Counted from the stretch's first letter, positions 1,709 through 50,637 are shown. The stretch is 64,000 nucleotides of DNA from Thermoanaerobaculia bacterium (GCA_963664405.1 OY761158.1:6336001-6400000), one strand, 5' to 3'. Numbers and translations: made by a program. Notes: a model not told the origin generated them from the letters alone.

Positions 1709-1979
1709 TTAGAATAGGAAGCCCACTTTGAGGCGAAACTCCCGCGTGGTCTGGTAAGAACCGATCGTGTTGGGGGGCAGGCCGTTGGAGCGGGTGACAA
1801 CTGCTTGTTCCTGCTCGTCGGTGATGTTGGCGACCTCGAACCCGAGCTGGCCGCTGAACTTCCCGCCAACTGGGAATTCCCACATGGCGTTCACGTTGAG
1901 GGTGAAGAGCTCCTCGAGAGTATTCGCGTCGATCGGCTCGCGGGCCGTCGAGGTATTGATCCTCTGACCGGACACCGGG
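1709..1979 (-). pseudogene. C-terminal fragment of the TonB-dependent receptor
   Basis: PVSGQRINTST...REFRLKVGFLF, with the terminal Phe typical of beta-barrels; joins in frame to the 13082-10672 part. Confidence 0.9.
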
Positions 1980-2026
1980 GGCGGATTCAACTGGTCGTCG
2001 CAACATCTCGTGATGGAGGTGTTTCG

Positions 2027-3245
2027 ATGGGAGTTGGCAAGTGTCAGGGTGCGATTCGAGCGATGCGTGGCCAGATGCGGTCACCTGGCCGGCCCTCGAC
2101 AGCGCGGCGCGAGGACCGGATCCGGTTCTGGGAGACGATCGCTCGTGGGGCGTCCAGCGAGGACGCCGCAACAGAGGCTGGGGTGTCGCCGGCTGTCGGG
2201 TCGAGATGGTTCAGGCAAGCTGGTGGAATGCGACCTATCTCGTTGGCTCCGGTGTCGGGGCGTTATCTGTCGTTCGCCGAGCGTGAAGAGATCGCCATCC
2301 TTCACGCTCAGCATGTTGGGGTACGTGAGATCGCTCGCCGCCTGGGTCGTTCACCGTCGACGATTTCGCGGGAGCTGCGCCGCAACGCGGCGACTCGCAG
2401 CCGTGCCGTAACTTATCGGGCCACGACTGCGCAGTGGCACGCAGAGCGGCGCGCCAGCCGTCCGAAGGTCTCCAAGCTTGCCGCGAACGATGCCTTGCGT
2501 GAGTACGTGCAGAACCGCCTCGCCGGCGTGATCGCAAGGCCTGACGGGGAGCTGGTGCCGGGTCCGGATGTGCGTTGGATCGGCCGTCGGCACGGCCGTC
2601 GCCAGGATCGGCGTTGGGCGAAATCCTGGAGTCCGGAGCAGATCTCGAACCGGCTTCGGATTGATTTCCCCCATAATGAGTCGATGCGGATCTCTCACGA
2701 GGCGATCTACCAAGCGCTCTACATCCAAGGTCGAGGAGCCCTCAAACGCGAGCTCGTCGCGTGCCTGCGAACCGGGCGAGCGCTACGAGTGCCGCATGCG
2801 CGAACCCGGGGGAGAGGCAAGAAATTTGTAACTCCGGAGATCATGATCAGCGAACGCCCCGCCGAAGCCGGCGACAGGGCCGTGCCGGGTCACTGGGAAG
2901 GCGACCTGATCGTCGGGCTCGAGAGCTCAGCGATCGGGACCCTCGTCGAACGCACTACGCGGTTCACGATGCTGCTGCACCTGCCCCGCATGGAAGGGCA
3001 CGGGACCGAATCGAGGGTGAAGAACGGGCCGGCCCTCGCCGGGCACGGCGCCGAAGCCGTCCGTGACGCGATCGCGGTGTCAATCACCACGCTGCCCGAG
3101 CAGCTCCGCCGGTCCTTGACCTGGGACCAGGGCGCCGAGATGGCTCAACACGCTCAACTCCGCGTCGATACCGGCCTCGCGATCTACTTCTGCGACCCGC
3201 ACAGCCCCTGGCAGCGGGGCACCAACGAGAACACCAACGGACTAC
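2027..3245 (+). pseudogene. IS30 transposase, N-terminal part (interrupted by IS21)
   Basis: HTH RSPSTISRELRRN; GHWEGDLI; LTWDQG; PWQRGTNENTNGL; GGAGG before ATG 2027. Confidence 0.93.
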
Positions 3246-3604
3246 TGTTGATGGCTGCGAGCAAGCGCATCCCGTTGGCTGCGAGCGCAGTTTCCGGGAT
3301 GGAGTGAGCTGAGGGCTTCGCGACCGCGGGAAAGCTAGGCCTTCTTCAGGAAGGGCGGCATCATCCCGCCGGAACGGCGGTCCGGGTGCGTGGTCCCGGC
3401 GGCGTGTTTGCGGTCGGAAGAGATGCGTGAGTCGGTGTAGGGCTTTGCAGTGCGGGCTCTGCTCTGATAGAGCAGGCCGACCAGAGACGGCGAGAGCCCG
3501 GGAAAGCGAAGTAGAAAACGCCCCGGGCTCTGCCCCAAACCGCAGCATTAGCTGCGCTTGCAGTATGGCAGAGAGTCGGGGTCGTCGTCGAATGGGAGGC
3601 GACG

Positions 3605-4000
3605 ATGCGACCGGACTACCGACTCTTCGACTGTGCTCGATGCCGTCGGCGTATCTCGCTGTGCTCGCACTGTGACCGTGGCCAGCGTTACTGCCGGGCT
3701 TGTGCTCTGGTGGCTCGTCGGGAATCGACTCGGGCGGCCGGCCATCGGTACCAGCGAAGCCTCCGAGGTCGGCATTGTCATGCCGCCCGTCAGGCCCGCT
3801 ACCGTCGGCGCCAGCGCGAGCGGGCAGAGAAAGTGACGCATCAGGGTACCCCAGGCGGTACTTCGGGGAGGACACTGTGTCGGATCGAGACTCCGAGGCG
3901 CGAAGTGCGCTACGACCCGAGGAATCCGCGATGCATGCAGTGTGGAGAGGCCTGCCGAGAGTTTGTGCGAACGAGCTTTCGTCGTTGCCGACGGAGATAG
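3605..4000 (+). CDS. Cys/Arg-rich, probably zinc-binding, accessory protein of the IS21 element
   Basis: CARC, CSHC, YCRAC and CMQC motifs; ends 4 nt before istA. Confidence 0.7.
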   Translation: MRPDYRLFDCARCRRRISLCSHCDRGQRYCRACALVARRESTRAAGHRYQRSLRGRHCHAARQARYRRRQRERAEKVTHQGTPGGTSGRTLCRIETPRREVRYDPRNPRCMQCGEACREFVRTSFRRCRRR

Positions 4001-4004
4001 GGGC

Positions 4005-4684
4005 GTGATCGACGCACAGCTGCGCGGGGAGATCCGTCGTCTGTTCCTGGTCGAGAAGTGGAAAGTCGGCACGATCGCTCGACAGCTACAGCTGCACCCC
4101 TCAACCGTGCGCCGGGCGCTGGAGAAGTCCGGCGTGCTACCCCAGCAGCGACGAGGGAGGATGATCGATCCTTACCTGCCGTTCATCGAGCAGGTGCTCG
4201 GGACCTACCCACGACTGCCGGCGAGCCGTCTCTACACCATGGTGGTGGAGCGCGGCTATCCAGGAGGCCCGGATCAGTTTCGCCACCTGGTGGCCTCGAT
4301 GCGACCGAAGCCCCAGCGCGAGGCGTTTCTCTCGCTGCGCATGCTGCCAGGAGAGCAGGCGCAGGTCGACTGGGGCCACTTCGGTCGGCTCCGCGTCGGC
4401 CGGGCACATCGTCGGCTCTATGCCTTCGTCTTCGTGCTGTCGTTCTCGCGCACGGTCTTCGTGCACTTCACCCTCGACACTCGTCTCGAAACCTTCTTGC
4501 ACGCTCACCAGCTGGCCTTCCACTACGTCGACGGCGTCGTCAGGACCGTTCTGTACGACAACCTGCGAACCGCGGTGATCGAGCGGCAGGGAACCGCGGT
4601 GCGCTTCCATCCCGTGCTGCTCGATTTCGCCAGCCACTACGGCTTCCTTCCCACCGTCGCCGCGGTGGCTCGGGGAAATGAGAA
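4005..4684 (+). pseudogene. istA: IS21 transposase IstA, N-terminal part
   Basis: PGEQAQVDWG, LYDNLRT, ARGNEK; broken by the recombinase element. Confidence 0.92.
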
Positions 4685-4687
4685 GGG

Positions 4688-6781
4688 CTACGCTTCACAC
4701 TGCACCTCCTCCGTAGGGTTCGGTTCGACGTCGAGGCGGCGCCGTCGTTTCGAGAGTTTTCGGCCCTGCATTTTGACGGGCGGGTCGTCGCCGGGATGCT
4801 CGTAGAGGCACTCGTTCTTGTCGTTGTAGGCATGGGCACGCAGCAGGCCGTGGTTGCGCCATGTCTTCACCGTGTGGGTCGCGACACCCAGTAGGTCAGC
4901 CATCTCTTCGAGGGTAAGCATTCCCCCCTCACGCAGTCGGTCGTACCTCTTCTTGATGTCGTAGTCACGGCGCAGTCGCCGGACGATGCCGGCGTGAAAT
5001 CGTTTGCCCTCTCCGGAGAGATGGCCTCTGTCGTTGAGGATGCTCGCAATCTCGGCCTCGGTGTAGTCATCAAGCAGGGTATCAATCTCGGCAACGACCT
5101 GTTTCGAGGTTTGGCGTAACTCCCATGCTGTCGGCGGAATGGGCAGTTTGAGACTTCGTGTCGCGCCACCTCGGAAGCGGACACCGACAACGATCTCGTC
5201 GCCCTTCGTCAAGGTGACGTCCTCGATGAGCAAGCGCACCATGCGCTTGCGCTCGCGTTGAGGCGTCTTCGGGTCGTTCCACAACCGCGGGAAGTCGGTG
5301 GCGAGGGCGAGGATCTCTTCTCGTTGCTGGTCGCCGAGCTGTTGGTGATCTTGCTGGCGGCGCTGCTCGAGCTCCTCCTGTGCGTCGTGCAGCCCGCGCA
5401 GCCTCTCGTTCCACTCGGCCTCGAGGACATCCACCACGAGGCGGTTCCCCGGATCGACCTCCATGAAGCGACGCCGAGCCAAGTCAGCCTCCTGTCGAGC
5501 TCGCTGTACGTGCTGGCGCCGCAGGGAATCGGCCTCGTGGATCCGTGCATCGAGCTCGACCTGGACTTTCAGTGCAACCTCCAGAGTCACAGGCGTAACC
5601 GTCTCCACAAGCAGCTCTCCGATGGCCCGATCGATGCCCTTGCCCGGGATCGACTGACACTTGGGTGTCGCGGTGTCGATGCCCTCGCGCTGGCAGACGT
5701 ACTCGGGCCACTGAGTGCCCCTGCGCGTGTGATAGCGGACCGTCATCCGATGGCCACAAACGCCGCAGAGGACCAAGCCCTGCACCAGCGCTGGCCCCTC
5801 GCGCGGTGGGCTCTTGCGCCGGTCTCGGCCGTGGGCCTGGGCGTTGTCTCGTAGTCGTCTCAGGTTTTCTTCGAATTGTTCCCAGGGAATGTATCCGGGG
5901 TGCGCGTCGAGCAACAGCGCGGTCCACTCCTCCCGCGGAAGCGACTTGACCTCGACGGTGCCGTTGACGCGCCTTTGCGTGTGAGTGCGACCGAAACAGA
6001 AAGCGCCAGCGTAGCGGGGATTGTGCAGCACCCTCAGGACGCGCCAGTGGCGCAACGACTCCCACAACAGCTCTCCCTTGTGGGGGCCGAAGCGCGGCCG
6101 GCGCGGAAACCGCAAGCCTTGCTCGCGGAAGTGTTTGACCGTCGCCGAGGCCGAGCCCATACGCTCGAAGGTCTCGAACAGGTGCTCGAAGCTCCGTTGG
6201 ACCTGGCCGTCGGGATCGAGCACCACGTTACCGGTCGGGTCGTAGAGTAGGCCGACGGGTAACGGGGTTTGCAGCGCACCTCGGCGCGCCTGATTCAGAA
6301 TGCCTCCGCGCAGCCGAGCCCGCATCACGTGAAGCTCCGCCTCGCTCATCGTGCCCTTGAGCCCGAGCAGAAGGCGATCGTTGAAATCACTCGGGCTGTA
6401 GACCCCGTCCTCGTCAAGGATCAGCGTGTCGGTCAGCGCGCAGATCTCCAGCAGTCGATGCCAGTCCGTGCTATTGCGTGCCAGGCGCGAAACCTCCAGC
6501 CCGAGAACGATCCCGGCTCGGCCCATACCGACCTCGCCGACGAGCTTCTGAAAGCCCTCGCGGTCGACGCTGGAAGCTGCGGACTTACCCAGGTCCGAGT
6601 CGATCACGATGACTCGCTCGATGGGCCATCCCATCGCCACCGCGCGCTCTCGCAACGCGTACTGGCGTCTCGTGCTCTCCGTATTCTCGAACACCTGGCG
6701 CACGGTCGACTGGCGAACATACAGGTACGCATCGCGTCGCAGGTGGCTTGGGGTCACCTTCTGGTGGGCGCTTGCGCTCAT
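4688..6781 (-). CDS. Large serine recombinase (resolvase, recombinase, Zn-ribbon and C-terminal HTH domains)
   Basis: YLYVRQS catalytic Ser motif, DLGKS, EVSRLAR, LHNPRYAG, LCGVCGHRM. Confidence 0.95.
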   Translation of the reverse strand: MSASAHQKVTPSHLRRDAYLYVRQSTVRQVFENTESTRRQYALRERAVAMGWPIERVIVIDSDLGKSAASSVDREGFQKLVGEVGMGRAGIVLGLEVSRLARNSTDWHRLLEICALTDTLILDEDGVYSPSDFNDRLLLGLKGTMSEAELHVMRARLRGGILNQARRGALQTPLPVGLLYDPTGNVVLDPDGQVQRSFEHLFETFERMGSASATVKHFREQGLRFPRRPRFGPHKGELLWESLRHWRVLRVLHNPRYAGAFCFGRTHTQRRVNGTVEVKSLPREEWTALLLDAHPGYIPWEQFEENLRRLRDNAQAHGRDRRKSPPREGPALVQGLVLCGVCGHRMTVRYHTRRGTQWPEYVCQREGIDTATPKCQSIPGKGIDRAIGELLVETVTPVTLEVALKVQVELDARIHEADSLRRQHVQRARQEADLARRRFMEVDPGNRLVVDVLEAEWNERLRGLHDAQEELEQRRQQDHQQLGDQQREEILALATDFPRLWNDPKTPQRERKRMVRLLIEDVTLTKGDEIVVGVRFRGGATRSLKLPIPPTAWELRQTSKQVVAEIDTLLDDYTEAEIASILNDRGHLSGEGKRFHAGIVRRLRRDYDIKKRYDRLREGGMLTLEEMADLLGVATHTVKTWRNHGLLRAHAYNDKNECLYEHPGDDPPVKMQGRKLSKRRRRLDVEPNPTEEVQCEA

Positions 6782-7065
6782 GCGTGGTTCTCCTCTAGAT
6801 GGCTGAGAGCCATGGCGGCCAGCACGTTGATCAGATCCGCGCTCGTATCGTGAGGCAGTGCGGACGGCCTGGCTATCTCGGCGGACGGTGCCGGGGTCGG
6901 CGCGGGCATCTTGGACCCCTGTTCAACCCAAGCGGCCAGCCCTTGTCGCAGGAGAACGGCCAAGCCGAACCGAACCGATAGGAGCTGCCGCTTCGCCGCA
7001 TGTCCTCGGAGCTCCTCGTAGCGAGCGACATGGGCCGGAGCGTTCTGCTGGCGTGTCGCGCTCAT
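6778..7065 (-). CDS. Small hypothetical protein (Y4bB-like) of the recombinase element
   Basis: RYEELR...GLAVLLRQGLAAW; 4-bp overlaps with both neighbours. Confidence 0.8.
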   Translation of the reverse strand: MSATRQQNAPAHVARYEELRGHAAKRQLLSVRFGLAVLLRQGLAAWVEQGSKMPAPTPAPSAEIARPSALPHDTSADLINVLAAMALSHLEENHA

Positions 7066-7529
7066 GGCCGGCGTTTTTTTTCCTGGCGAGCCAGGGCTCG
7101 CTCAATGCTGCGCGGATGGATCGAGATGCCAAAGCGCTTCTGCACCCACTCGACCAGGGCGGTTGCATCTGCGTCCGGCTCCCCCTCCAGCCTGTCGTGC
7201 AGGGCCTCGACGACCTCCTCGGATAGCTTGTGGGCGCGGCGCGGCCCCGGCTTTCTTGGCAGCAACGCGGGTAGGCCGCCTTCTTCGTAAACCACCTGGG
7301 CGTGGTAGAAGGATGGGCGCGACAACCCGAAGCTTGCCGCGCTCCGGCTCACCGTGTGTCTGTCCACCCGGACACGGCGCAGCATCTCGTACTTGACCTG
7401 CACGAGGTCTCGAGGGTCGAAGAACTCGCTCGAGGTGAACAAATCGTCCGAGACCTTCTCCGGCTGGGGATGAAGGCACCCTCGTTGACGGAGGGCCTCG
7501 GCTTTCGGGTCGGGTCTGCGTCGCGGCAT
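7062..7529 (-). CDS. HTH protein (Y4bC-like) of the recombinase element
   Basis: FFDPRDLVQVKYEMLRRV, FGLSRPSFY, IHPRSIERAL; GAGGAG RBS before ATG 7529. Confidence 0.85.
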   Translation of the reverse strand: MPRRRPDPKAEALRQRGCLHPQPEKVSDDLFTSSEFFDPRDLVQVKYEMLRRVRVDRHTVSRSAASFGLSRPSFYHAQVVYEEGGLPALLPRKPGPRRAHKLSEEVVEALHDRLEGEPDADATALVEWVQKRFGISIHPRSIERALARQEKKRRP

Positions 7530-7541
7530 GGTCTCCTCATG

Positions 7542-7688
7542 GAATGTAATTCTAATTATGCCTTTCATGGATCCTCTGTCAAGGGGTGTCCACCAAGAGA
7601 GTACCGATAGATCGTGCATTAAATTGGCCTATCTCTACACTCCTGGTCACACTCTGGCACTCTTCCCGACATAATTGTGATTACATTC
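7542..7688. promoter_or_regulatory. AT-rich inverted repeat pair upstream of the HTH gene, putative operator/promoter
   Basis: GAATGTAATTCTAATTATG (7542-7560) vs rc of 7670-7688 GAATGTAATCACAATTATG, 16/19 match. Confidence 0.5.
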
Positions 7689-7741
7689 ACGGCATAATCT
7701 CCTTTACGCACGGTGCCCCTCAACCGTCCTCGCGCAGCTCT

Positions 7742-8036
7742 TCATCGCTCGCTCTCCCGGGTCAGCTTGGCGAGCTCGAGCAGGTCGGCCAAGCGGTACA
7801 TCGATCTGCCTGCGGAGAGGACAACCACGGGGTCCTCGGCCACCGCACTCGTCCAACGCGCTGGAAGGGAGCGTAGCTCCTCGCATTCATCCAGGTAGAA
7901 GACCCGGTCCTCGCCCCAGCACTGGCGATAGTGAGCCAGCTCGTACTCACGCCCCAACAGCGGGTGGAACGGATGGGTTACCCGAAAACGTCGTTGCTCA
8001 CAATCTGTATCGGGTGCATTCGACCATTGAGCCCAA
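7742..8036 (-). CDS. DUF5372 (Y4bD/Y4pK-like) protein; lacks a start codon in the integrated state
   Basis: FRVTHPFHPL...WGEDRV...LPARWT...LLEL; no ATG/GTG/TTG between attR and the conserved THPFHP. Confidence 0.8.
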
Positions 8037-8865
8037 AGGCCGCGTCGAGCGCGCAATCCGCTTCCTGCGAAGCTCGTTCTTCGGCGCCCGAACGGTGAGC
8101 GATTTGGATCGTCTGAATCGGCAGGTCCTGGAATGGTGCCAGAGGTCGCAGCGCAGACCCTGGCCGCAGGACCGACAGCGAACCGTGAAAAGCGCCCTGG
8201 CCCAGGAACGACCTCGACTGCTTGAGCTTCCCGGAGACGACTTCGAAACCGACCTGCGACTGGAGATCAAGGTCAGAAAGACGCCGATCGTGCGCTTCGA
8301 CCTCAACGACTACTCGGTGCCGCACAGTCATGTGCAGAGGACCGTCACGCTCCTCGCCAGCGAGCATCGGGTGCGGATCCTCGATGGCCAGGAGCTCCTC
8401 GCCGAGCACCCTCGCTCGTACTCCCGGGGCGAGCAGATCCTCGATCCTCAACACCTCGAGGAGCTCCTCGCTCACAAACGCAGGGCCCGACGACACCGGG
8501 GCTTCCATCGGCTGTTTTCCGCTGTGCCTCGATGCGAAGAGCTGATGCAGCAGCTCGCCGAGCGAGGCGAGAACCTCGGAACGCAGACCGCCGGCCTGCT
8601 CCGACTCCTGCGCCAGTACGGCCCCCAGCGACTCGACAAAGCCGTGCGCGAAGCGCTCCTGAACCACGCACCGCGATTCCAGTCCGTCCGGCTCCTACTC
8701 GAACGGCACCAGCGCGGCCTCGGTCAGCCCCCGGCTTTACCGGTGCCGCTCAGCCAGGAGCTCCAACAGCGAGATCTCTCCGTGAGACCGCACAACCTCG
8801 AGGACTACGACCAACTTGGAGGCAACGACGATGGCCCGACCCAGGAAGAGTCCAACGATCCCTGA
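8037..8865 (+). pseudogene. istA: IS21 transposase IstA, C-terminal part
   Basis: GRVERAIRFLRSSFF, VRFDLNDYSVP; in frame with 4005-4684 (1509 nt in total). Confidence 0.92.
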
Positions 8866-9625
8866 CGAACCACTACGAGAGCTCGCCCGATCCCTCGGCT
8901 TCTACGCCCTCGTCGACGACTGGGGCACCTACCGAGAACAGCCCTGGCTCGAACAGCTGCTGCGCAAAGAAGAGGCCGAGCGCAAACGGCGCAGCCTCGA
9001 ACGGCGCATCCGCACCAGCCGCGTCGGGCTCTTCAAGAGCATCGCCGACTTCGACTTCTCCTGGCCCCAGCGCATCGACCGCGAGCAGATCCAGGATCTG
9101 CTCACCCTCCAATTCCTCGACGACATCACCAACGTCATCCTCCTCGGACCCAACGGTGTCGGCAAGACCATGATTGCCAAGAACCTCCTCTACCAGGCGC
9201 TGCAACGAGGGGCCACCGCCAGCTTCGTCACCGCCTCCGACATGCTCAACGATCTCGCCGTCCAGGAAACCCCCTCGGCGCTCCAGAGAAGGCTCTCCAA
9301 ATACACCCGACCCTCGCTTTTGGCAATCGATGAGCTCGGCTATCTCTCCTACGACCACCGCCACGCGGATCTCCTCTTCGAGGTCGTCTCCAGGAGATAC
9401 GGCAACAAGCCCATTCTTCTCACCACCAACAAGCCCTTCGCCGAATGGGCCGAGGTCTTTCCCAACGCCTCCTGCGTCGTCACTCTCGTCGATCGACTCA
9501 CCCACCACGCCGAGATCGTCAAGATCGAGGCTAACTCCTATCGCCGCAAGGAGGCCAAGGAGGCTGCTGAAAAAAAGGCCAAGGACCGCGCCAAAAGGCG
9601 GAGCGCAGCACGACGACGCTCATGA
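8831..9625 (+). CDS. istB: IS21 helper ATPase IstB
   Basis: Walker A GPNGVGKT, Walker B LLAIDELGY, LVDRLTHH, SYR. Confidence 0.96.
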   Translation: MARPRKSPTIPDEPLRELARSLGFYALVDDWGTYREQPWLEQLLRKEEAERKRRSLERRIRTSRVGLFKSIADFDFSWPQRIDREQIQDLLTLQFLDDITNVILLGPNGVGKTMIAKNLLYQALQRGATASFVTASDMLNDLAVQETPSALQRRLSKYTRPSLLAIDELGYLSYDHRHADLLFEVVSRRYGNKPILLTTNKPFAEWAEVFPNASCVVTLVDRLTHHAEIVKIEANSYRRKEAKEAAEKKAKDRAKRRSAARRRS

Positions 9626-9978
9626 CCCGAAGCCACTATCGGCGCCAGCTCCTCCGCCTCTATCGACTCCTTCCCGACACCCCGCACCGCTTCCACCACG
9701 GCGACCGCGTCATCGTCGACCAGCTCTTCGACCAAGACCTGCCTCTCACCGTCCTCCAGGCCGCCCTCCTCCTCGGCTCCGCCCGACGCGCATGCCGAGA
9801 TCCGCGCCTACCAAAGCTCCAGCCCATCCGATCCCTCGCCTACTTTCTCCCCATCCTCCGAGAACTCCCCACGACGCCACCCCCCGAGGGGTACCTCGAC
9901 TATCTGCGCCACACCCTGAGTCACGCCTCGCGGGGACAAAAAACCGACTCGCAGCCAACTAAGTGCGCTTTCTCGTAG
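9622..9978 (+). CDS. Hypothetical accessory protein of the IS21 element
   Basis: ATGA overlap with istB; ends within the IRR; IRSLAYFLP. Confidence 0.7.
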
Positions 9979-9993
9979 CCGGTAACAGACTAC

Positions 9994-14746: not shown

Positions 14747-14902
14747 TGAGTATCATTTGCTCCGCTAGGCGCGCCCCACCTAGTTGTTTCTTGGCGCCGA
14801 GGACGGCGCACTTTGAGCTTGCTTCCTATGCGCTTCGGAAGACGTTTTCGTTTCTTGCCGCGCAGACTCCTAGTGTCGAGAAAATCAGGAGCCCTTAAGC
14901 CG

Positions 14903-16714
14903 ATGAGACGAGTCCAACGCATTGCCGCGCTGACGGTCGGCTCCTTGGCTGCCACTTACGCCGCGGGTGCGGAGCGGAACGCCTACTTCGGTGATCTGCA
15001 CATCCACACCCAGTTTTCGTTGGACGCGTTCACCTTCGGCACGCGCTCGTCGCCCGACGACGCCTACAGGTATGCCCGCGGCGAAGCCATCAAACATCCC
15101 GTCGGCTTTGATATCCAGCTCGATCGCCCGCTCGATTTCTACGCCGTCACCGACCACGGCTTCTATCTCGGCATGTGGTTGGCGATGATGGACCCCGAAC
15201 ATCCACTCCACAACGATCCCGAAGCCCGTCGCTATCTCGATTCGGACCAGGGAACGCTCGTCACCGGTATGGGCCACGACCTCACTACTGCCATCCAGTT
15301 TCTCCGGGACCATCCCGACCCGGGGGCCTCACGTCCGGCATGGCGGGAGACCATCGCGTCGGCCGAGCGAAACTACGAGCCGGGCAAGCTCACGACGTTC
15401 ATCGCCTATGAATACAGTTCATCGGACGCCGACGGCGGCAACCAACACCGCAACGTCATTTTCCGCGGCTCGAAAGCGCCCGACCTGCCTTTCACTCGAC
15501 TCGACTCGCCGAACCCCGAGGATCTCTGGGATTGGCTCGATGACTTGCGTGCGCGGGGCATCGAAGCGCTGGCGATTCCGCACAACTCGAACCAGAGCCG
15601 CGGTAATAAGTTCGCGCTCCAGCAGGTGTCGGGCGAGCCTTTCGACGCGGCGTACGCCCGGCTGCGGATGCGCAATGAGCCACTCGTCGAGATGACCCAG
15701 ATCAAGGGCACTTCGGAGACACACCCCTTGCTCTCTCCCAACGACGAGTGGGCCGACTTCGAGATCGAGTACCTCTCCCCCGAGGACTCGAACCTGAAGA
15801 TCGTCCGTGGCAGCTATGTACGCGACGCCTACCTGACCGGTCTCGGGTTCGAGGAAAAGGAGGGCTTCAATCCCTACCGCTTCGGAATGATCGGCGCGAG
15901 CGACGGCCACAACGCGGGCTCGGCCTTCGAGGAGTCGAAATTCTTCAGCAAGCTCGGGCTCCACGATGGCAAACCGGAGCAGCGCGGGTCGGTTCCCCCA
16001 GGTGGCGCGAAAACCTGGGACGACACCGCACTAGCCGCGCGCAGTGCGAGGTATTCGAGTTGGGGTGCTTCTGGCCTGGCGGGGGTGTGGGCCGAGGAGA
16101 ACAACCGCGAGTCGATCTACGATGCGTTCCGCCGCAAAGAGACCTTCGCCACCACCGGTCCGCGCATCCGTGTGCGTTTCTTCGGCAGCTACGAGTTCGG
16201 CGACGATGCGCTCGAGAGCAGCGATCTCGTGGCCAAGGCCTACGAGCACGGTGTGCCGATGGGCGCCGACCTCCCAGCCCGGCGCCGTGGCTCACCGCAG
16301 TTCCTCGTTTGGGCGGTGCAGGACCCCGAGTCCGCGAGACTCCAGCGTGTGCAGGTGATCAAGGGCTGGATCGAGGACGGCGAGGCGAAGGAGCGCGTCT
16401 ACGATGTCGCCTGCTCGGACGATCTCGAAGTCGATCCTGAGACCCACCGCTGTCCCGACAACGGCGCCGAGGTGAATCTCGCCGACTGCAGCGTCAGCGC
16501 CGACGTCGGCTCTGCGGAGCTCAAAACACTTTGGACCGATCCCGAGTTCGACCGCGGGCAACGTGCCTTCTACTATGTTCGTGCCTTGGAGAATCCCACT
16601 TGCCGCTGGTCGACGTGGGATGCCATGCGTGCGGGCACGCCGCCTCGACCCGGTCTTGCGCTAACGCTTCAGGAGCGCGCCTTTTCGTCTCCCATTTGGT
16701 TGAACCCGCGATAG
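14903..16714 (+). CDS. DUF3604 secreted PHP-like metallohydrolase, copy 1
   Basis: YFGDLHIHT, AVTDH, HRNVIF, IPHNSN, SDGH, QERAFSSPIW. Confidence 0.92.
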   Translation: MRRVQRIAALTVGSLAATYAAGAERNAYFGDLHIHTQFSLDAFTFGTRSSPDDAYRYARGEAIKHPVGFDIQLDRPLDFYAVTDHGFYLGMWLAMMDPEHPLHNDPEARRYLDSDQGTLVTGMGHDLTTAIQFLRDHPDPGASRPAWRETIASAERNYEPGKLTTFIAYEYSSSDADGGNQHRNVIFRGSKAPDLPFTRLDSPNPEDLWDWLDDLRARGIEALAIPHNSNQSRGNKFALQQVSGEPFDAAYARLRMRNEPLVEMTQIKGTSETHPLLSPNDEWADFEIEYLSPEDSNLKIVRGSYVRDAYLTGLGFEEKEGFNPYRFGMIGASDGHNAGSAFEESKFFSKLGLHDGKPEQRGSVPPGGAKTWDDTALAARSARYSSWGASGLAGVWAEENNRESIYDAFRRKETFATTGPRIRVRFFGSYEFGDDALESSDLVAKAYEHGVPMGADLPARRRGSPQFLVWAVQDPESARLQRVQVIKGWIEDGEAKERVYDVACSDDLEVDPETHRCPDNGAEVNLADCSVSADVGSAELKTLWTDPEFDRGQRAFYYVRALENPTCRWSTWDAMRAGTPPRPGLALTLQERAFSSPIWLNPR

Positions 16715-16725
16715 AGGAGTAGTCG

Positions 16726-18540
16726 ATGAGAAGAGTCCGCATTGCCGCGCTGACGATCAGCGCATTGGCTGCCACCTATGCCGGTGCGGAGCGAAACGCT
16801 TACTTCGGTGATCTGCACATCCACACCCAGTTTTCGTTCGACGCTTTCATCTTGGGCACCCGCTCGTCGCCCGATGACGCCTACCGCTATGCGCGCGGCG
16901 AAGCCATCAAACATCCCGTCGGCTTCGATATCCAGCTCGATCGCCCGCTCGATTTCTACGCCGTCACCGACCACGGTTTCTATCTCGGCTGGTTCAAGGC
17001 GATGACGGATCCTGATCATCCGCTCCACGACGATCCCGAAGTCCGTCCCTATCTCGATTCGCACACCGGAACCCTCCTCACCGGGCAAGGTCCGAATACC
17101 ACTGCCGCCATCCGGTATCTCCAGGCCCACCCCGACCCGGAGGCCTCACCTTCGGCATGGCGGGAGACCATCGCGTCGGCGGAGCGAAACTACGAGCCGG
17201 GGAAGCTCACGACCTTCGTCGCCTACGAGTACAGCTTCACGGAAGGCAGGGGGGTGGGGAATCAACACCGCAACGTCATTTTCCGCGGCACGAAGGTGCC
17301 CGACGCACCCTTCACGCGACTGGACTCGTCGAACCCCGAGGATCTGTGGAAGTGGCTCGACGGCTTGCGAGCTCGGGGCATCGAAGGTCTCGCCATTCCC
17401 CACAACTCGAACCAGAGCACCGGCCAGAAGTTCGCGCGCCAGCAGACGTCGGGTGACCCCTTCGATGCGGCGTATGCCCGGCTGCGGATGCGCAACGAGC
17501 CACTGGTCGAGGTAACGCAGGTCAAGGGCACCTCGGAGACACACCCCCTGCTCTCGCCCAACGACGAGTGGGCCGACTTCGAGATCGAGCTCCGCTCCCC
17601 GGCAGCGTCGAAGCTCGAGGCCATCCGTGGCAGCTTTGTGCGCGACGCCTATCTGACCGGTCTCGAGTTCGAGGAGAACGAGGGCTTCAACCCCTACCGC
17701 TTCGGGTTGATCGGTTCGAGCGACTCCCACAACGCGGGCGCGTCCTACCGGGAGGAGAAATTCTTCAGCAAGCTCGGGCTCCACGATGGCGAGCCGGAGG
17801 GGCGCGCTTCGGTTCCTCCGGGGGGGGCAAAGACCTGGGATGACGCCGCTCTAACCAGGGGGGGATATAGCACCAGGATTCCGACGTGGGGCGCTTCCGG
17901 CTTGGCCGGGGTATGGGCCGAGGAGAACACACGCGAATCGATCTACGACGCGTTCCGCCGCAAAGAGACCTTCGCCACCACCGGACCGCGCATCCGTGTG
18001 CGTTTCTTCGGCAGCTACGAGTTCGGCGACGATGCGCTCGAGAGCAGCGATCTGGTGGCCAAGGCCTACGAGCACGGTGTGCCGATGGGCGCCGACCTCC
18101 CGGCCCGGCGGCGCGGCGCGCCGCGGTTTCTCGTCTGGGCGGTCCAGGACCCCGAGTCCGCAAGGCTCCAGCGTGTGCAGGTGATCAAGGGCTGGATCGA
18201 AGACGGCAAGCCGCAGGAGCGCGTCTACGATGTCGCCTGCTCGGACGATCTCGAAGTCGACCCTGAGACCCACCGCTGCCCCGACAACGGCGCTCAGGTG
18301 AATCTCGCCGACTGCAGCGTCAGCGCCGACGTCGGTGCGGCGCAGCTCAAGACTCTATGGGCCGATCCCGAGTTCGACCGAGGGCAACGTGCCTTCTACT
18401 ATGTGCGTGCCTTGGAGAATCCAACTTGCCGCTGGTCGACGTGGGATGCCATGCGTGCGGGCACGCCGCCTCGACCCGGTCTTGCGCTAACTCTTCAGGA
18501 GCGCGCCTATTCGTCTCCCATTTGGTTGAACCCGCGATAG
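16726..18540 (+). CDS. DUF3604 protein, copy 2
   Basis: Same motifs as copy 1; GAGGAG RBS. Confidence 0.92.
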   Translation: MRRVRIAALTISALAATYAGAERNAYFGDLHIHTQFSFDAFILGTRSSPDDAYRYARGEAIKHPVGFDIQLDRPLDFYAVTDHGFYLGWFKAMTDPDHPLHDDPEVRPYLDSHTGTLLTGQGPNTTAAIRYLQAHPDPEASPSAWRETIASAERNYEPGKLTTFVAYEYSFTEGRGVGNQHRNVIFRGTKVPDAPFTRLDSSNPEDLWKWLDGLRARGIEGLAIPHNSNQSTGQKFARQQTSGDPFDAAYARLRMRNEPLVEVTQVKGTSETHPLLSPNDEWADFEIELRSPAASKLEAIRGSFVRDAYLTGLEFEENEGFNPYRFGLIGSSDSHNAGASYREEKFFSKLGLHDGEPEGRASVPPGGAKTWDDAALTRGGYSTRIPTWGASGLAGVWAEENTRESIYDAFRRKETFATTGPRIRVRFFGSYEFGDDALESSDLVAKAYEHGVPMGADLPARRRGAPRFLVWAVQDPESARLQRVQVIKGWIEDGKPQERVYDVACSDDLEVDPETHRCPDNGAQVNLADCSVSADVGAAQLKTLWADPEFDRGQRAFYYVRALENPTCRWSTWDAMRAGTPPRPGLALTLQERAYSSPIWLNPR

Positions 18541-35438: not shown

Positions 35439-36902
35439 TTGAACGTTCGCCCGGTTCTTCACTTTCAGGGTCGCCTGCTGCTCTTCCTCTCCGGGGGAAT
35501 GCTCCTGCCGATGCTCTGCGCCGGGTGGTACGGCGAGATTGGCGACGTTCGCGCGTTCATCCTCTCGGCGATCGCAACATCGGGGATGAGCATGATCCTG
35601 ATGTTGGCCGGACGGCGCGGCACCGAAAATCTATATCGCAGCGAAGGCGTTTTGATCGTCGTCGGCGGGTGGGTGATCGCGTCCATCTTCGGCTCGCTGC
35701 CGTATCTCTTCAGCGGCAGCATCACCAGTCCGGTTAACGCCCTCTTCGAGTCGGCCTCCGGCTTCACCACCACCGGCTCCACGATCCTCCTCGATATCGA
35801 GTCGCTGGGCCGCGGCATGCTGTTCTGGCGGTCCTTCACCCAGTGGCTCGGTGGCATGGGCATCATCGTGCTCTTCGTAGCTCTGTTGCCCGAGCTCGGC
35901 ACCGGTGCCCGCTTTCTCTACAAGCTGGAAGTACCAGGCCCCACCGCCAAGACCCTGCATCCTCGAGTGCACGACACCGCCTCGGTGCTGTGGCGCATCT
36001 ACCTCCTCTTCACCGTGGTCGAGACCGGTCTGCTGATGCTAGCCGGCCTCGATCTCTACGACGCGCTCACCACCACCTTCTCGACCTTGGCGACGGCGGG
36101 ATTCTCGCCCTACAACGCTTCGATAGCGCACTTCGAGTCCGGGCTGGTCGAGATCGTCGTGATCCTGTTCATGCTGATCGCCGGAGCCAATTTCTCGCTC
36201 TACTACGGTCTGCGGGTTGCAGGGCTGAAGAGAGGTCTACGAGGGTTTGCCTCTGATCGGGAGTTCCTCTTCTACCTCGGCGTGGCCGCGAGCATCACCG
36301 TGATCACCTCTGCGACTCTGCTGCGCGCCGGCGTCTTCGAGGGTGTGGGCGCGAGCCTGCGCGGCAGCCTCTTTCAGGTGGTGTCGATCCTCACCACCAC
36401 CGGCTTCACCACGGTCGACTTCGATAGCTGGCCGAACTTCGCCCGCCTGTTGATCTTCAGCCTCATGTTCTTCGGCGGCTGTGCCGGCTCCACGGCGGGA
36501 GGTATGAAGTTGATGCGCCTCGTCATCGGCATGAAGTCCGCGCTGCGGGAGGTGAAGCTCATCTTCAACCCGAACGCGGTACTGGCGGTCTTTGTAGGAC
36601 GTGAGCCGGTGCCTAACGGGGTGGTGTCGAGTGTGGTTGCCTTCCTCTTTCTCTACATTGCGAGCTGGGTCGCTGGCAGCGCGTTACTGGCCATAGGAGG
36701 CGCCGATCTCGAGACTGCCGCGAGCGCGTCGATCGCCGCACTGGGAAACATCGGACCTGGACTCAACGCCGTAGGACCGACTGGCAACTTCGATTTCTTT
36801 GCCGGCTGGCAGAAGCTCGTGTTGGTGGGGCTGATGTGGCTTGGGAGGCTGGAGGTCTTTCCTCTGGCCGCCCTCGCAACGGTCGCCTTCTGGCGCCGTT
36901 GA
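35439..36902 (+). CDS. trkH: Trk K+ uptake membrane subunit
   Basis: [40 protein letters not shown]. Confidence 0.96.
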
Positions 36903-37033
36903 GCTCGGAGTTCAAGGGGCGCAGGGCGTGTTTTAGTGGATCGCAGAACTCGATTGCTCGAGGTGTTTGGTGCTACCGTCATGGAGTGCCGTTGCTGAGA
37001 AAATTCTTGTCCGAGGCGGGGGGAAGGATCCCC

Positions 37034-40000
37034 ATGACAAGAAGGGGGCGGCTCCGGACAGTCGCGGTGTTGCTCGCCTGCGCGGGAGGGGTGGGGGCTC
37101 CTCTAGCCGGCCAGTCCGACGATGACCGCATCGAATTGGCGGTGGCGGCTCGTGGATCTTCCGGAAGCGTTCTCGATGCCCTCGATCCGACCGAGCTCGA
37201 AGTGGCGATCGACGGAGCTCCCGTCGACGCTGAAAGGATCTCGCTGGCCGCTCCCTCGGGGCCCGTGCGCGTGGTTCTCTACATTGACCATGCGGCATCG
37301 CGTGCTTCTTCGGTGCAGAGGCTGGTGAGCTCTCTACTCGACCAGAGCGAACGCCTCTTGGACCTTCCCGAGCTCGAGATCGTCGAGGCGGACCCCGTCC
37401 CGCAGACGATGCCGCGAGTCGCCAGCGTCGAGGAGCTCGAGAGGAGTCTCAACCGTGTCTTCCTCCGTCGCGAAGACAGCGACGAGGTCGCTCAGCTGCG
37501 GTCGAGCTTCCTTGCGGAAGTGCGCAAAGGCGAGGAACCGCACCTCGTTATCGCGGAAGCTGCGTATGGGCTCGAGCTCGATTTGCGGCGAGATCAATTG
37601 GACGGCTTGCTCGAGTGGGTGGCGGCGCAGGGCCCCTCACGGGAGCCCAAGATCCTCATGCTGCTCAATGACAATCTGGGGCTCGAAGCCAAGGACTTCT
37701 ATTTGCGGGGCCTGACCGCGAGCGCGGAGGTAGTGGGCCAGTGGGCGGCCGAGCCCGATCTCACCGAGCTCGCTTCCGCGCTGGCCGTCTACGGCTGGAC
37801 TCTGGTGCCGGTTCGACCCGAGCTTGCGAAAGACGGCGGCCGCCTGAGCTACCAACCGAGTGAGGAGCTTCCGGTCGGCTTCCGCGTCGGGCTTGGCCGG
37901 CGCCCCAGGGCGGAAGCCGCTCCCAGTCAAGACTTGGGCTGGGATTTCGGTGCGGTTGCTCGGCTCGAAGAGGCCGCCGGCCTCACCGGAGGTGAAGTTG
38001 TTACCGATCTCGGGGCTCTTTCCGACTGGGTCGAGGCGTACTCTTCGAGATCCGTTCTACGCATTGCCGACGTATCTCTGCCACCTGGCGAGATGCGCAC
38101 CGTGCGAGTGGCTTCTCGAAGCTCGGGAGTGAACGTGCTGGCCCCGGGGAGGGTCGGGCGAGGGACCCCGAATAGTGTCGCTGCGATGAGGGCGCGCCGC
38201 GCGGTAGCCGGTGATTCTGGTCTTGCCGAGCTCCAAGTTCGCTCCGCGATCGAGTTCGACCCCGACCTCTTGGGCCGGCAGCCCGGCCGCTTCGAGGTAA
38301 GAGTCGACCTCTTCGAGCTCCGAGAGCGTCTTGGCCAGTTCGATCAGGGCAGTTTCAGGGTTACAGTGGCCGTGCATCTGGAGACCGAAGAGCTGCTGCT
38401 GAGGCATGAGATCGTGCGCGACGTGGATCTCAGGGGGCAGGACGAATGGCGTTACGAGGGGAGTCTCAGAGTTCCGCCCGAAACCGATGGCGCGGTGGTG
38501 CTGGTGGAAGTTCTCGAGAGTGGTGATTGGGGCGAGTCTTTCGCCTCTTTCATTACCAAGACGGTACCGACACTGGCGGCTACGAGCGAGGATCTCCCCG
38601 CTCCTCGCGGACTCCTTCCGGATCGCCGAATCATCCGGATCGAACCGCCGGCAGACGCGGTGCTGATCGGCAAGGTGCGAGTGGAGGCTGAGGCCGACCC
38701 GGCGGTGCAACGAGTCGTATTCACTCTCGACGGCGACAGAGTCGCGACGCGCCGCAGGGAACCTTGGGCGACCAACGTCGATCTCGGACCGAACCCTCGC
38801 CAGCGTCTACTCGGTGTCGTTGCCTACGGCGCCAGGGGAAAGGAGCTGGGTCGCGATACTTTGACCCTCAACGAGGTAACGAAGTCCTTCGGTGTGCGGA
38901 TCGTCGAGCCGCGGAGTGGACGCAGAGTCGGCCCGGTTGATGTCGAGGCGGAGGTGAACCTTCCGAGCCCGGCGAAGCTGGATCGACTCGAGTTCTTTTG
39001 GCAGGACCAGTTGGTGTCGACGATGCGCCGCCCGCCTTTTCGCCAGCGCCTCTTCATACCGGTGGCATCCGAGCCCGGTCTCATCCGTGTTGCGGCCTAT
39101 CTCGAAGATGGCAGGATCGCCGAGGACGTGGTCCTCATGAACACGGACCTGTTCGAGGAGCTACTCACCGTCAAGTTGGTGGAGCTCTACGCCGTGGTTA
39201 CCGACCGCTCAGGCAAGCCGGTCCGGGACCTCGAGAGAGAGGACTTCGAGATCCTCGAGCAGGGAGCTCCGCAAGAGATCGAAAACTTCTCTCGTGCCGG
39301 TGACCTTCCCATCACCGTCGGCCTTGCCCTCGACTCCTCGCTCAGCCTCTTCGTCAAGATGCCGGCCGTGCAGGAGGCTGCCGGCGACTTCGTTCGGGGT
39401 CTGATGGAGGATCGTGACCGCGCCTTCTTGGTTGGCTTCAGCTCGCGCCCGCGCGTGGTGCGGGCCACTACCTCTGATCTCGACAACGTCATCAGCGGTA
39501 TCGAGTCGCTGACTCCTACCGGGACAACGGCGCTCTGGGAGGCAGTCGTGCTTTCGTTGCTGCAGCTTCAGGAGGCTACCGGGCGCAAGGCCTTGGTGCT
39601 CTTTTACGACGGCGATGACGAGGATGAAGACTTCTCGTTTTCGACCTCTCTCAAGCTCGCCCAGAAGGTGGGCGTACCGATCTATCTCATCATCATGAAC
39701 AATTCGGCCGCTCGCAGTGGCGGCAAGAGCTTCGGCACCAAGAATCGAGCTTCACGCCTGGAGAAGATCGCCAGGGCAGGGGGTGGAAAGGTCTTCTACG
39801 TTCGAACAGATCAGGATCTCGGTGAGATTTTCACTGCGATTCGCGAGGAGCTCCGCGCCCACTACCTCTTGACCTACTACCCGAAGATCGTCGATGAAGA
39901 GGCGGCGGAGGGGGCCGAGTCAGACTGGCGGCCGATCGATCTCGTAGTCAAGCGTCCTGGTCTCGTCGCCCGAACGCTGGCCGGGTACCAGAAACCGTGA
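37034..40000 (+). CDS. Secreted VWA-domain protein with Ig-like domains
   Basis: Signal peptide; VELYAVVTD, LALDSSLS (MIDAS), TALWEA, YDGDD. Confidence 0.88.
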   Translation: MTRRGRLRTVAVLLACAGGVGAPLAGQSDDDRIELAVAARGSSGSVLDALDPTELEVAIDGAPVDAERISLAAPSGPVRVVLYIDHAASRASSVQRLVSSLLDQSERLLDLPELEIVEADPVPQTMPRVASVEELERSLNRVFLRREDSDEVAQLRSSFLAEVRKGEEPHLVIAEAAYGLELDLRRDQLDGLLEWVAAQGPSREPKILMLLNDNLGLEAKDFYLRGLTASAEVVGQWAAEPDLTELASALAVYGWTLVPVRPELAKDGGRLSYQPSEELPVGFRVGLGRRPRAEAAPSQDLGWDFGAVARLEEAAGLTGGEVVTDLGALSDWVEAYSSRSVLRIADVSLPPGEMRTVRVASRSSGVNVLAPGRVGRGTPNSVAAMRARRAVAGDSGLAELQVRSAIEFDPDLLGRQPGRFEVRVDLFELRERLGQFDQGSFRVTVAVHLETEELLLRHEIVRDVDLRGQDEWRYEGSLRVPPETDGAVVLVEVLESGDWGESFASFITKTVPTLAATSEDLPAPRGLLPDRRIIRIEPPADAVLIGKVRVEAEADPAVQRVVFTLDGDRVATRRREPWATNVDLGPNPRQRLLGVVAYGARGKELGRDTLTLNEVTKSFGVRIVEPRSGRRVGPVDVEAEVNLPSPAKLDRLEFFWQDQLVSTMRRPPFRQRLFIPVASEPGLIRVAAYLEDGRIAEDVVLMNTDLFEELLTVKLVELYAVVTDRSGKPVRDLEREDFEILEQGAPQEIENFSRAGDLPITVGLALDSSLSLFVKMPAVQEAAGDFVRGLMEDRDRAFLVGFSSRPRVVRATTSDLDNVISGIESLTPTGTTALWEAVVLSLLQLQEATGRKALVLFYDGDDEDEDFSFSTSLKLAQKVGVPIYLIIMNNSAARSGGKSFGTKNRASRLEKIARAGGGKVFYVRTDQDLGEIFTAIREELRAHYLLTYYPKIVDEEAAEGAESDWRPIDLVVKRPGLVARTLAGYQKP

Positions 40001-50470: not shown

Positions 50471-50637
50471 CTAGCGTCCTGTATCAGTAGTTCGTCACAC
50501 AACTCGCTGGCCCTTTTGCGCGCTGCCGTCGTTGCTCCTCCTTGCAATATTGCCCAATATACCTTCGTCGTAGCGCCTTGGCAGCACCCAAAATGACTGC
50601 GCGATTTATGCAACGAACCACTGATACAGGACACTAG
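50471..50637 (-). repeat. MITE-like repeat, copy B
   Basis: Inverted homolog of 45067-45232; its terminal CTAG contains the htpG stop codon. Confidence 0.85.

Follow-up and report, generated by a model that had tools for sequence, protein, structure and literature searches.

The window analysed here is a stretch of 64,000 nucleotides from a Thermoanaerobaculia bacterium (GCA_963664405.1 OY761158.1:6336001-6400000), in which istA, the transposase gene of an IS21-family insertion sequence (IS), is split by a second, smaller element of 3354 bp (4683..8036, one core copy counted) with all four of its genes on the minus strand. It is very probable that this insert is an autonomous element of about 3.35 kb with a large serine recombinase (LSR) of its own, whose attP recombines with degenerate attB sites at [N/K]-x-x-x-E codons, and that it carries a DUF5372 gene whose product would be a cofactor available only from the excised circle. 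Coordinates are window positions, strands (+ or -) are relative to the strand shown, and copies were sought in the whole genome, a single contig of 6.78 Mb.

The manner of insertion can be read at the two junctions. The istA frame is broken after ...ARGNE at base 4682 and resumes at 8037 with (K)GRVERAIRFLR; on the left, istA ...GGGGAAATGAG is followed by AA and GGGCTACGCTTCACACTGCACC, and on the right GGTGCATTCGACCATTGAGCCC is followed by AA and AGGCCGCGTCGAGC. The left attachment site (attL, 4668..4706) is made up of a B arm (4668..4682), the core AA (4683..4684) and a P' arm (4685..4706) that is the same at all five copies in the genome, and the right one (attR, 8013..8050) of a P arm (8013..8034), the core AA (8035..8036) and a B' arm (8037..8050). 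A first-pass annotation of this DNA had quoted the same junction sequences and had proposed a large-serine-recombinase element with precisely the attP and attB that they give. The empty allele that it predicted, GAG-AAA-GGC, does exist: all 21 uninterrupted IS21 copies examined in the same genome read ...GGGGAAATGAG AA AGGCCGCGTCGAGC. Since these empty sites and the empty paralogue of a second target, described below, each hold a single AA, the crossover core is AA and not GGC.

The reconstructed attP is about 46 bp long and forms an imperfect dyad about its AA core, with inner (AGCCC/GGGCT) and outer (GGTGCA/TGCACC) arms at equal distances, just as the annotation had read them; the outer arms are retained in relatives down to about 60% protein identity, and relatives likewise have TT/AA at their ends. 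One AA stands at each end of every copy, the 2-bp core is common to attP and attB, and the insertion is free of a target duplication, as in a conservative crossover. The placing of attB next to the catalytic Glu codon was also correct, the site lying four codons ahead of the IstA Glu. As the empty alleles are exactly flank, AA and flank, conservative excision would restore istA, and the element may thereby inactivate its IS21 host reversibly. One of the 23 IS21 copies of this type in the genome (L124, at about 2648203) has an extra A two bases to the left of the AA core, which shifts the istA frame at the attachment site; this 1-bp insertion could be chance in an A-rich run, an element-resistant site or the trace of a faulty recombination.

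The interrupted IS21 is complete. It spans 3246..9987 (+), its limits being set by identity to other copies, by inverted repeats at its termini and by a GACTAC target duplication; the insert aside, its length is 3390 bp. The 5' part of istA (3942..4682, +) comprises 247 codons with the helix-turn-helix (HTH) domains and both catalytic Asp residues (Pfam rve, residues 136-241), and it lies in an open reading frame (ORF; 3942..4805) that continues for 40 codons inside the element until a stop at 4805. The 3' part (8037..8865, +; Pfam Mu-transpos_C_2) begins within the Lys codon of KGRVER and holds the catalytic Glu, and istB, the AAA+ helper of IS21 (Pfam IstB_IS21, 1.8e-62), follows at 8816..9625 (+). 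Intact IstA scores 244.8 bits against the NCBIfam IS21 profile (cut-off 160), and its KGRVE Glu aligns with E233 of the solved IstA (8q4d/8b4h), which belongs to the catalytic triad D124, D187 and E233 in the accessible part of the structure paper (PMC10122671). As read from the DNA, the insertion strips the Glu and the C-terminal part from IstA and leaves a predicted 247-aa fragment with the DNA-binding domains.

The putative enzyme of the element is a recombinase of 697 aa (4688..6781, -), in which Pfam recognizes a resolvase domain (PF00239, 2.5e-17, residues 18-169), a recombinase domain (PF07508, 1.9e-11), a zinc ribbon (PF13408, 2.2e-07) with a coiled coil, and a C-terminal HTH of the HTH_17/MerR type at residues 621-660. 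DUF4368 was absent from this Pfam scan, which listed Resolvase, Recombinase, Zn_ribbon_recom, HTH_17 and MerR_1 only. The residues R23-Q24-S25-T26 and the four cysteines C339, C342, C363 and C375 are invariant across 37 aligned recombinases, and a model made with AlphaFold2 (AF2), which is of moderate quality (predicted local distance difference test, pLDDT, 68.3), has long helices at 397-441 and 447-478 between the strands of the zinc domain. Judged by its sequence, the enzyme has every mark of a large serine recombinase, and it is probably active as an integrase (attP x attB), indirect signs of this being the five nearly identical copies, the exactness of the empty sites and contigs whose limits coincide with the element ends. 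In one relative (L025) CAG replaces the recombinase stop codon (TAG/TAA), so that the frame would extend over the element end. Targeting guided by an RNA was also considered and appears unlikely, given that a scan of 4500..8200 against Rfam at E up to 1 gave no match and that one and the same element occupies differing targets.

The element is present five times in the genome, at 100, 99.97, 99.5, 99.3 and 98.7% identity and with identical two ends throughout. One recombinase cluster is thus found in several unrelated targets, copies that are 98.7-100% identical lying in IS21, IS481-like, IS3 and another rve gene. The window copy (c1) lies between ARGNE and KGRVER of IS21, and a second (c2) between RPYRPRT and NGKAERFIQTL of an IS481-like gene. 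A third (c5) has PRSPWQ on its left and NPYAERVIGSMRREC on its right, in an rve gene below the family cut-offs; its flank peptides read SPWQ^NPYAERVIG (the caret marks the insertion point), and its target has an unoccupied paralogue, ...CCTTGGCAG AA TCCCTATGCTGAG, with a single AA. The two remaining copies have flanks from two genes each: c4 (L121, 3059614-3062970) has SRKGDCWD of an IS3 gene (249.3 bits) on the left and an IS21 fragment on the right, and c3 (L120, 2342092-2345448) has on the left an ORF beside an IS1182-like fragment and on the right an IS481-like half. In every interpretable case AA forms the first two bases of an Asn or Lys codon, four codons ahead of the catalytic Glu.

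Relatives of the element proved to be widespread. In a protein search the 120 best recombinase matches were 78-100% identical to the query, nearly all were exactly 697 aa long, and they bore names from several phyla; their contigs were mostly 2.2-8 kb. When one genome per species was scanned, 30 loci were found, in metagenome-assembled genomes labelled as Deltaproteobacteria, Phycisphaerae, Binatia, Planctomycetota, Gamma-, Alpha- and Betaproteobacteria, Gemmatimonadetes, Acidobacteriota, Armatimonadetes, Spirochaetia and others, and more than 10 phyla were represented overall. From a metagenome scan the best 80 of 158 relatives were kept, with their ends located by fuzzy matches to both end motifs; the contigs of several start or stop exactly at the element ends. 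The right flank carried [N/K]xxxE in 44 of 47 cases (44 loci and three here, giving 45 unique 24-mers), with N in 33 and K in 14, and the three misses were L016, where Lys replaces the Glu, L021, and L077, a false end call. The left flanks have typical rve-transposase motifs at their ends (SPNL, SPWQ, ARGNE, PYRPQG, GRGRCxD, RVSDD, HPQS), and among 46 unique left-flank peptides of at least 40 aa Pfam found rve in 22, HTH_21 in 12 and HTH_32 in 11, with one peptide each from an IS256-family (Mutator) transposase and a luciferase-like monooxygenase. In the left-flank matches that were inspected individually the rve match stops at the junction, and by eye about 65 of 73 left flanks are rve-like. 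The targets include IS3, IS481-like, Mu/TnsB-like, ISNCY-type and unclassified rve families, and in all cases the element is oriented antisense to the gene that it has entered.

The same codons are used by more distant elements. A tblastn search of plasmids gave 530 records, in which the best places had 52-62% identity. On pNGR234a of Sinorhizobium fredii NGR234 the same four-gene module is present, annotated as DUF5372 family, helix-turn-helix, 'transposase' and recombinase family, whose genes we take to be y4bA/y4pH/y4bD/y4pK. All three of its copies there sit at the motif (ANTPQA^KGRVERANQTL, RPRRPRD^KAKVEAAV and RPRRPQA^KAKLENAV), and a copy on a Burkholderia plasmid interrupts an IS3 gene at MSRKGDCYD^NAPMESFW. 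Within the phylum of the window, the DUF5372 family (PF17342) was found in 16 of 401 sampled genomes and in one of nine other genomes of the same taxonomic family, as against none of 14 control genomes. One of these genomes (G279) holds 11 copies, and [N/K]xxxE was present at all nine loci read from three genomes of the phylum (seven of the 11 in G279, and those in G332 and G258); L140, L143 and L146, the ends of which were unclear, stand outside this count. A sister lineage in a further genome (G353, L166-L168), with a recombinase N-terminus 71-74% identical and both the HTH gene and the small ORF present, was found in IS66 Orf2 three times out of three, at ...LYWDRDGWAIWY^KRLEAGTF and with the overall pattern W(Y/A)^KRLExG. 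The Pfam match of its flank to TnpB_IS66 (4e-5) falls below the cut-off because the flank holds just one third of the domain. Its P arm differs (TT GTAAC...AAATGCAGAC), and the GTG start that reads across the junction is shared. Its use of IS66 Orf2 suggests that homing to conserved IS codons is older than the specificity for rve genes.

It had originally been proposed that the element homes to IS21. Taken strictly, with istA as the sole address and all other contexts as secondary rearrangements, this is hardly credible. In its favour, the window copy interrupts IS21, for which all 21 examined copies show a perfect empty allele, and L011, L014, the left flank of L049, L074 and L081 are also at ARGNE^K of IS21-type genes. 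On the other hand, a target in this genome that is not IS21 has an exact empty paralogue of its own, only about seven of the 47 right flanks are of IS21 type, the rest being IS3, IS481-like, Mu-like or other rve genes with matching halves in many loci, and the sister lineage occupies IS66 Orf2 instead. Only one of the 23 IS21 copies in the genome is occupied, and it is the corresponding codon of other rve transposases that the remaining four element copies and almost all of the relatives occupy. Comparison with the sites of related recombinases, which the annotation had suggested as a check, accordingly upholds homing at the level of the motif, where homologous [N/K]xxxE codons are used, and overturns it at the level of IS21, since other genes are used as well. 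The true target, so far as the flanking genes can tell, is the conserved [N/K]xxxE motif of the rve superfamily.

This motif may well be read as DNA. In the logo of the targets the strongest positions on the right are G at +2, G at +8, GARCG at +11 to +15 and T at +21, and on the left CC at -9/-8 and A at -5; summed over positions the information is about 27 bits, to which the right side contributes about 16, the left side 7.5 and the core 4. The attP itself has an inner P' arm, GGGCTACGC, that is similar to the most frequent target, CGCCTACGC (codons N-A-Y-A). With a matrix built from the targets in other organisms only, every AA dinucleotide in the genome was scored (467,596 in all; mean -23.8, sd 9.0), and the top ranks were rve motifs, among them a SPNL^NAYAER site (32.2), the empty paralogue of the c5 target (27.1) and 21 IS21 sites (16.2); the scan is partly circular, as the matrix derives from rve sites, and gives no proof of the bases read by the protein. 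A motif of this kind appears rare enough to serve as an address, and an address at the DNA level would in principle suffice, and we infer that the recombinase reads it there.

Several observations weigh against a target defined in this way. As to occupancy, one hit among 23 IS21 copies implies that activity is low or tightly controlled, and dozens of high-scoring sites are unoccupied, including those of an IS3-like family (14 copies) and a second IS21 family (8). The logo is confounded with amino-acid conservation, and so the bases read by the protein are not identified by it. The record of insertions is blurred by rearrangement, with flanks from mixed genes in two of the five copies here (c3 and c4) and also in the relatives L025 and L049; no reciprocal partners of the c3 and c4 flanks were found, and these flanks fit deletions between directly oriented copies, in which case the element may drive genome rearrangement. 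Finally, some insertions lie elsewhere. Of L060 and L062, one has as its target a luciferase-like monooxygenase gene (Bac_luciferase, 3.1e-20) and the other a transposase gene of the IS256 family (Mutator; profile position 287 of 379), L017 lies in an ORF of no recognized kind, and L021 and several unclassifiable flanks are further sites that do not read as rve.

These exceptional sites, together with the multi-targeting LSRs described by Durrant et al. (10.1101/2021.11.05.467528), in which the core is TT (= AA) and the flanks are weak, could be taken to mean that insertion occurs nearly anywhere at AA and that the prevalence of transposase genes merely reflects the survival of harmless insertions. 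Survivorship, though, cannot fix the core on one codon of one motif across unrelated IS families, as seen in 44 of 47 flanks, in three of three copies on pNGR234a and in nine of nine loci of the phylum, and intergenic DNA, pseudogenes and other parts of IS elements would be equally harmless and yet are unused. We therefore regard relaxed specificity as very improbable and retain the view that attP recombines with the conserved transposase codons.

The second unusual feature of the element is its DUF5372 gene, which is split between the two ends. The 5' piece (4684..4712, -), which overlaps the recombinase stop, consists of a Shine-Dalgarno (SD) sequence GGAGGAGG (4712..4705), a GTG start (4698..4696) and five codons up to the core. 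The 3' piece (7742..8035, -; PF17342, 1.9e-20) is open from the core and has 97 codons and a stop. A start codon placed to read across the junction, 14 nt inside the core and with GGAGG ahead, was found in 77 of 77 loci (65 unique; GTG in 57 and ATG in 20), and from the core onwards the 3' frame is open in all of 52 loci. When the ends were joined in silico, an intact ORF of 99-116 aa resulted in all 42 loci that hold both ends, and by our own reading the joined frame is also intact in the distant NGR234, Burkholderia and G353 elements. No conserved internal start was found in the 3' piece; the Val/Ile codon that opens the Pfam match was considered as a start and rejected, as it is GTG in 13 of 45 relatives and an SD-like motif precedes it in one of 45. 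In the integrated state the body of the gene lies upstream of the promoter of the element, with neither a ribosome-binding site nor a start codon. As far as the reading frames show, DUF5372 is whole only in the excised circle, across attP, where it would be the last gene of a promoter-driven operon.

This operon can be reconstructed from the remaining genes. A sigma-70-type promoter (7555..7582, -; TTGACA and CATAAT separated by 16 bases, 11 of 12 consensus matches) faces the HTH gene, a 95-aa ORF and the recombinase gene. It lies in a 212-bp spacer richer in A+T, with inverted repeats at 7542..7560 and 7670..7688 on either side, and 45 of 47 unique relatives have it in the corresponding position, though the spacer between the hexamers differs. 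The HTH gene (7062..7529, -) encodes a protein of 155 aa that resembles the N-terminal DNA-binding part of IS630/IS481 transposases (Pfam HTH_32/29/28; NCBIfam IS630 positions 12-109, IS481 positions 2-109) and had 70 near-full-length stop-free matches. The conserved 95-aa ORF (6778..7065, -) overlaps the stop of the HTH gene and the start of the recombinase gene; it belongs to no known family, with no match in Pfam (E up to 5), NCBIfam or Atlas, and gave 48 near-full-length stop-free tblastn matches with a median identity of 49%. With overlaps of four bases between the HTH gene and the 95-aa ORF and between this ORF and the recombinase gene, the three form one operon, which the promoter would drive and to which circularization would add the complete DUF5372 gene downstream. 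The 95-aa ORF and the HTH protein are both candidates for a factor on the excision side.

What DUF5372 might do is suggested by structure prediction. The AF2 model of the protein is a small five-stranded beta-barrel with two C-terminal helices (pLDDT 76.6), for which a Foldseek search of the PDB returned nothing at E <= 0.001, the best match being the KOW/SH3-like domain of eS4 (6.5e-3); the fold thus points to no function. In a complex prediction DUF5372 and the recombinase scored 0.69, compared with 0.00 for the best of three controls; 58 of 80 solved complexes reached the mark used for this score, as did 2 of 110 mismatched pairs, a rough calibration since our own alignments were used. The runs agree in at least 56% of contacts, with a partner pLDDT of at least 69, and the interface on the recombinase comprises 338-343, 394-413, 482-518 and 523-541, which in the AF2 model of the recombinase are the strands of the zinc domain and the base of the coiled coil. 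Verified recombination directionality factors (RDFs) are predicted to bind at the junction of DBD2 and the coiled coil (PMC12286644). On this prediction DUF5372 would contact the recombinase where the zinc domain meets the coiled coil, the place at which directionality factors act, and we suggest that it is a directionality cofactor whose supply is coupled to the topology of the element. Because it would be made only after excision, a role in the integration phase is favoured, and most likely it sets the recombinase to integrate once a circle exists, or blocks the excision mode.

The main alternative, though an unlikely one, is that the element is the same and DUF5372 is an ordinary RDF that drives excision, made from internal starts, by read-through or from circles in trans. 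The predicted binding site is that of an RDF, and DUF5372 is a small protein whose gene adjoins that of its integrase. Some in-frame ATG, GTG or TTG lies between the core and the conserved domain in 28 of 45 unique relatives, and the public annotation of the NGR234 and Burkholderia elements places the DUF5372 start internally. These internal starts vary in position and have an SD in one of 45, compared with a cross-junction start with SD in 77 of 77; the integrated gene, moreover, lies upstream of the sole conserved promoter, and an RDF produced only after excision would inhibit re-integration. The case for a cofactor of the circle has weaknesses of its own. In-frame internal ATG or GTG codons do occur in some distant relatives and are used by the public annotation, the score of the predicted complex expresses model confidence only, and the classical role of an RDF, which is needed for excision, makes a paradox with a gene that is whole only after excision. 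An excision-circle (attP) junction was looked for against 4000..8700 in the contigs of four element-holding runs (X19, X20, X21 and X23) and none was seen; contigs drop rare forms, and so its absence there is evidence neither way.

The same contigs gave some further information on the element. The sole joint in those of the four runs is a skip from 4682 to 8035, which represents the empty IS21 copies, and there is no joint that goes back. The contigs of all four have 3 extra bp behind position 7530, next to the HTH start codon, and the 3357-bp copies c3-c5 share this insertion. In run X23 ('organism B') the half with DUF5372 and the HTH gene (6302..8027) has a contig depth of 130.9, about three times that of the recombinase half (41.3), which hints at extra partial copies of the element in that strain.

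Taken together, we propose the following course of events. The element would be a hyperparasite that moves by conservative site-specific recombination through its own large serine recombinase, its attP recombining with a degenerate attB that corresponds to the codons for [N/K]-x-x-x-E, the active-site motif that is best conserved among rve-type DDE transposases. Because the core is not palindromic it fixes the orientation, and the element genes come to lie antisense to the transposase gene. Insertion would sever the catalytic Glu and disable that IS copy; as the IS retains both of its ends, intact sister copies could presumably move the 6.7-kb composite in trans. Since every rve transposase is under constraint at this motif, multiple harmless landing sites would be available in almost all bacterial genomes and plasmids, and this abundance probably explains how recombinases that are 78-90% identical come to be in more than 10 phyla. 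A bolder version would make the element a cross-phylum 'transposon of transposons' that reads the DNA of the catalytic motif (and, in the sister lineage, that of IS66 Orf2), for which any IS is both landing pad and vehicle and whose direction is set by the circle-only DUF5372, a reverse directionality factor for the integration phase, of an undescribed kind, so that attP would contain a switch controlled by DNA topology; this we put forward tentatively, as slightly more apt to fail than to hold.

The element might instead serve its host rather than be selfish, as a brake on IS elements or as a domesticated off/on switch for transposases. Loss of the Glu leaves a truncated DNA-binding fragment of the transposase that could inhibit sister copies, and excision would be scarless. 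Such a function is nevertheless improbable in view of the patchy occurrence (16 of 401 genomes of the phylum, one of nine other genomes of the same family), the spread of near-identical copies inside genomes (11 in G279), the 78-90% identity of recombinases across phyla, which points to horizontal spread, and the fact that a single one of 23 IS21 copies is hit.

As to the surroundings, a 500-aa IS30-like ORF (HTH_38 and rve, 1805..3307) reaches past the left limit of the IS21 (3246) by 61 bases, and the element-bearing IS21 appears to lie in or against another transposase gene, which would make three levels of nesting. Farther along the window are two neighbouring full-length DUF3604 paralogues (14813..18540; 633 and 604 aa, each about 740 bits), two large proteins with VWA domains (36836..42750) and an Hsp90 gene (50634..52601).

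Neither DUF5372 nor a serine-recombinase element with transposase genes as its targets was found described in the literature that was searched, which left aside subscription journals, ISfinder and supplementary files. An element that homes to transposase active-site codons in diverse IS families and phyla would thus follow a selfish strategy for which no description was found in print, and this is relevant to the control of insertion sequences. It would also explain the many metagenome contigs of 3.3-4 kb that end exactly at such elements, and it gives a first context and a testable role to DUF5372 and to the long-unexplained four-gene module of pNGR234a. If true, the circle-only gene shows how a minimal serine-recombinase element can order excision and integration. 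In practical terms the elements offer a natural series of attP and attB sites from many hosts, a single enzyme for a defined but degenerate site, and a candidate cofactor.

Among known systems, the clostridial transposons Tn4451/Tn4453 (TnpX) and Tn5397 (TndX) are moved by a large serine recombinase. These transposons resemble the present element in having an LSR of about 700 aa, circular excision and insertion at several sites about a 2-bp core. Lyras and Rood are said to have found in 2000 that the joint of the Tn4451 circle forms a tnpX promoter which is present only in the circle. In that case it is the promoter of the recombinase that the joint rebuilds, whereas here it is a separate cofactor gene. 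The present element further differs from the TnpX/TndX elements in that its targets are active-site codons of transposases, that it carries no cargo gene and that no DUF4368 was found in it. phiRv1 of Mycobacterium tuberculosis integrates into the REP13E12 repeat family and is also a serine-integrase element with a repeated, probably mobile sequence as alternative attB sites; it differs in being bound to one repeat family in one genus, and is not known to use a superfamily protein motif across phyla.

IS607 is likewise a minimal serine-recombinase element with an HTH of the MerR type in its enzyme. In IS607, however, the enzyme belongs to the small serine recombinases, with its HTH at the N-terminus, no recombinase or zinc-ribbon domains and low target specificity, as opposed to the full LSR architecture of 697 aa found here with PF07508, PF13408 and a C-terminal HTH (621-660), by which the present element falls outside that family. 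A likeness of another sort exists with inteins, homing endonucleases and group II introns, which also home to the most conserved catalytic motifs, because such sequences cannot drift, and are removed without a scar. They use splicing or the repair of double-strand breaks, and the host gene stays functional, whereas the element described here would recombine site-specifically and disables the gene.

The serine integrases of phages (SPbeta, Bxb1, phiC31, LI/A118) share with the present enzyme the order of domains, the 2-bp core and an attP of about 46-50 bp with inner and outer arms. Phage RDFs resemble DUF5372 in that a small partner is predicted at the junction of DBD2 and the coiled coil, as given in the accessible part of PMC12286644. 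In contrast to the phage systems, no phage is present here, attB is multiple and degenerate, and the partner gene is interrupted by integration, for which reason regulation in the style of a phage RDF would be impossible. The multi-targeting LSRs of Durrant et al. (10.1101/2021.11.05.467528) are similar in that one cluster is found in many target genes, with a TT core and a logo drawn from natural sites, and transposase genes go unmentioned as targets in the passages of that work that are accessible. By the same passages, the clade of Durrant et al. is marked by DUF4368 and by relaxed, A/T-rich sites, whereas the element described here has a C-terminal HTH_17/MerR-like domain and a target of about 27 bits that corresponds to a protein motif.

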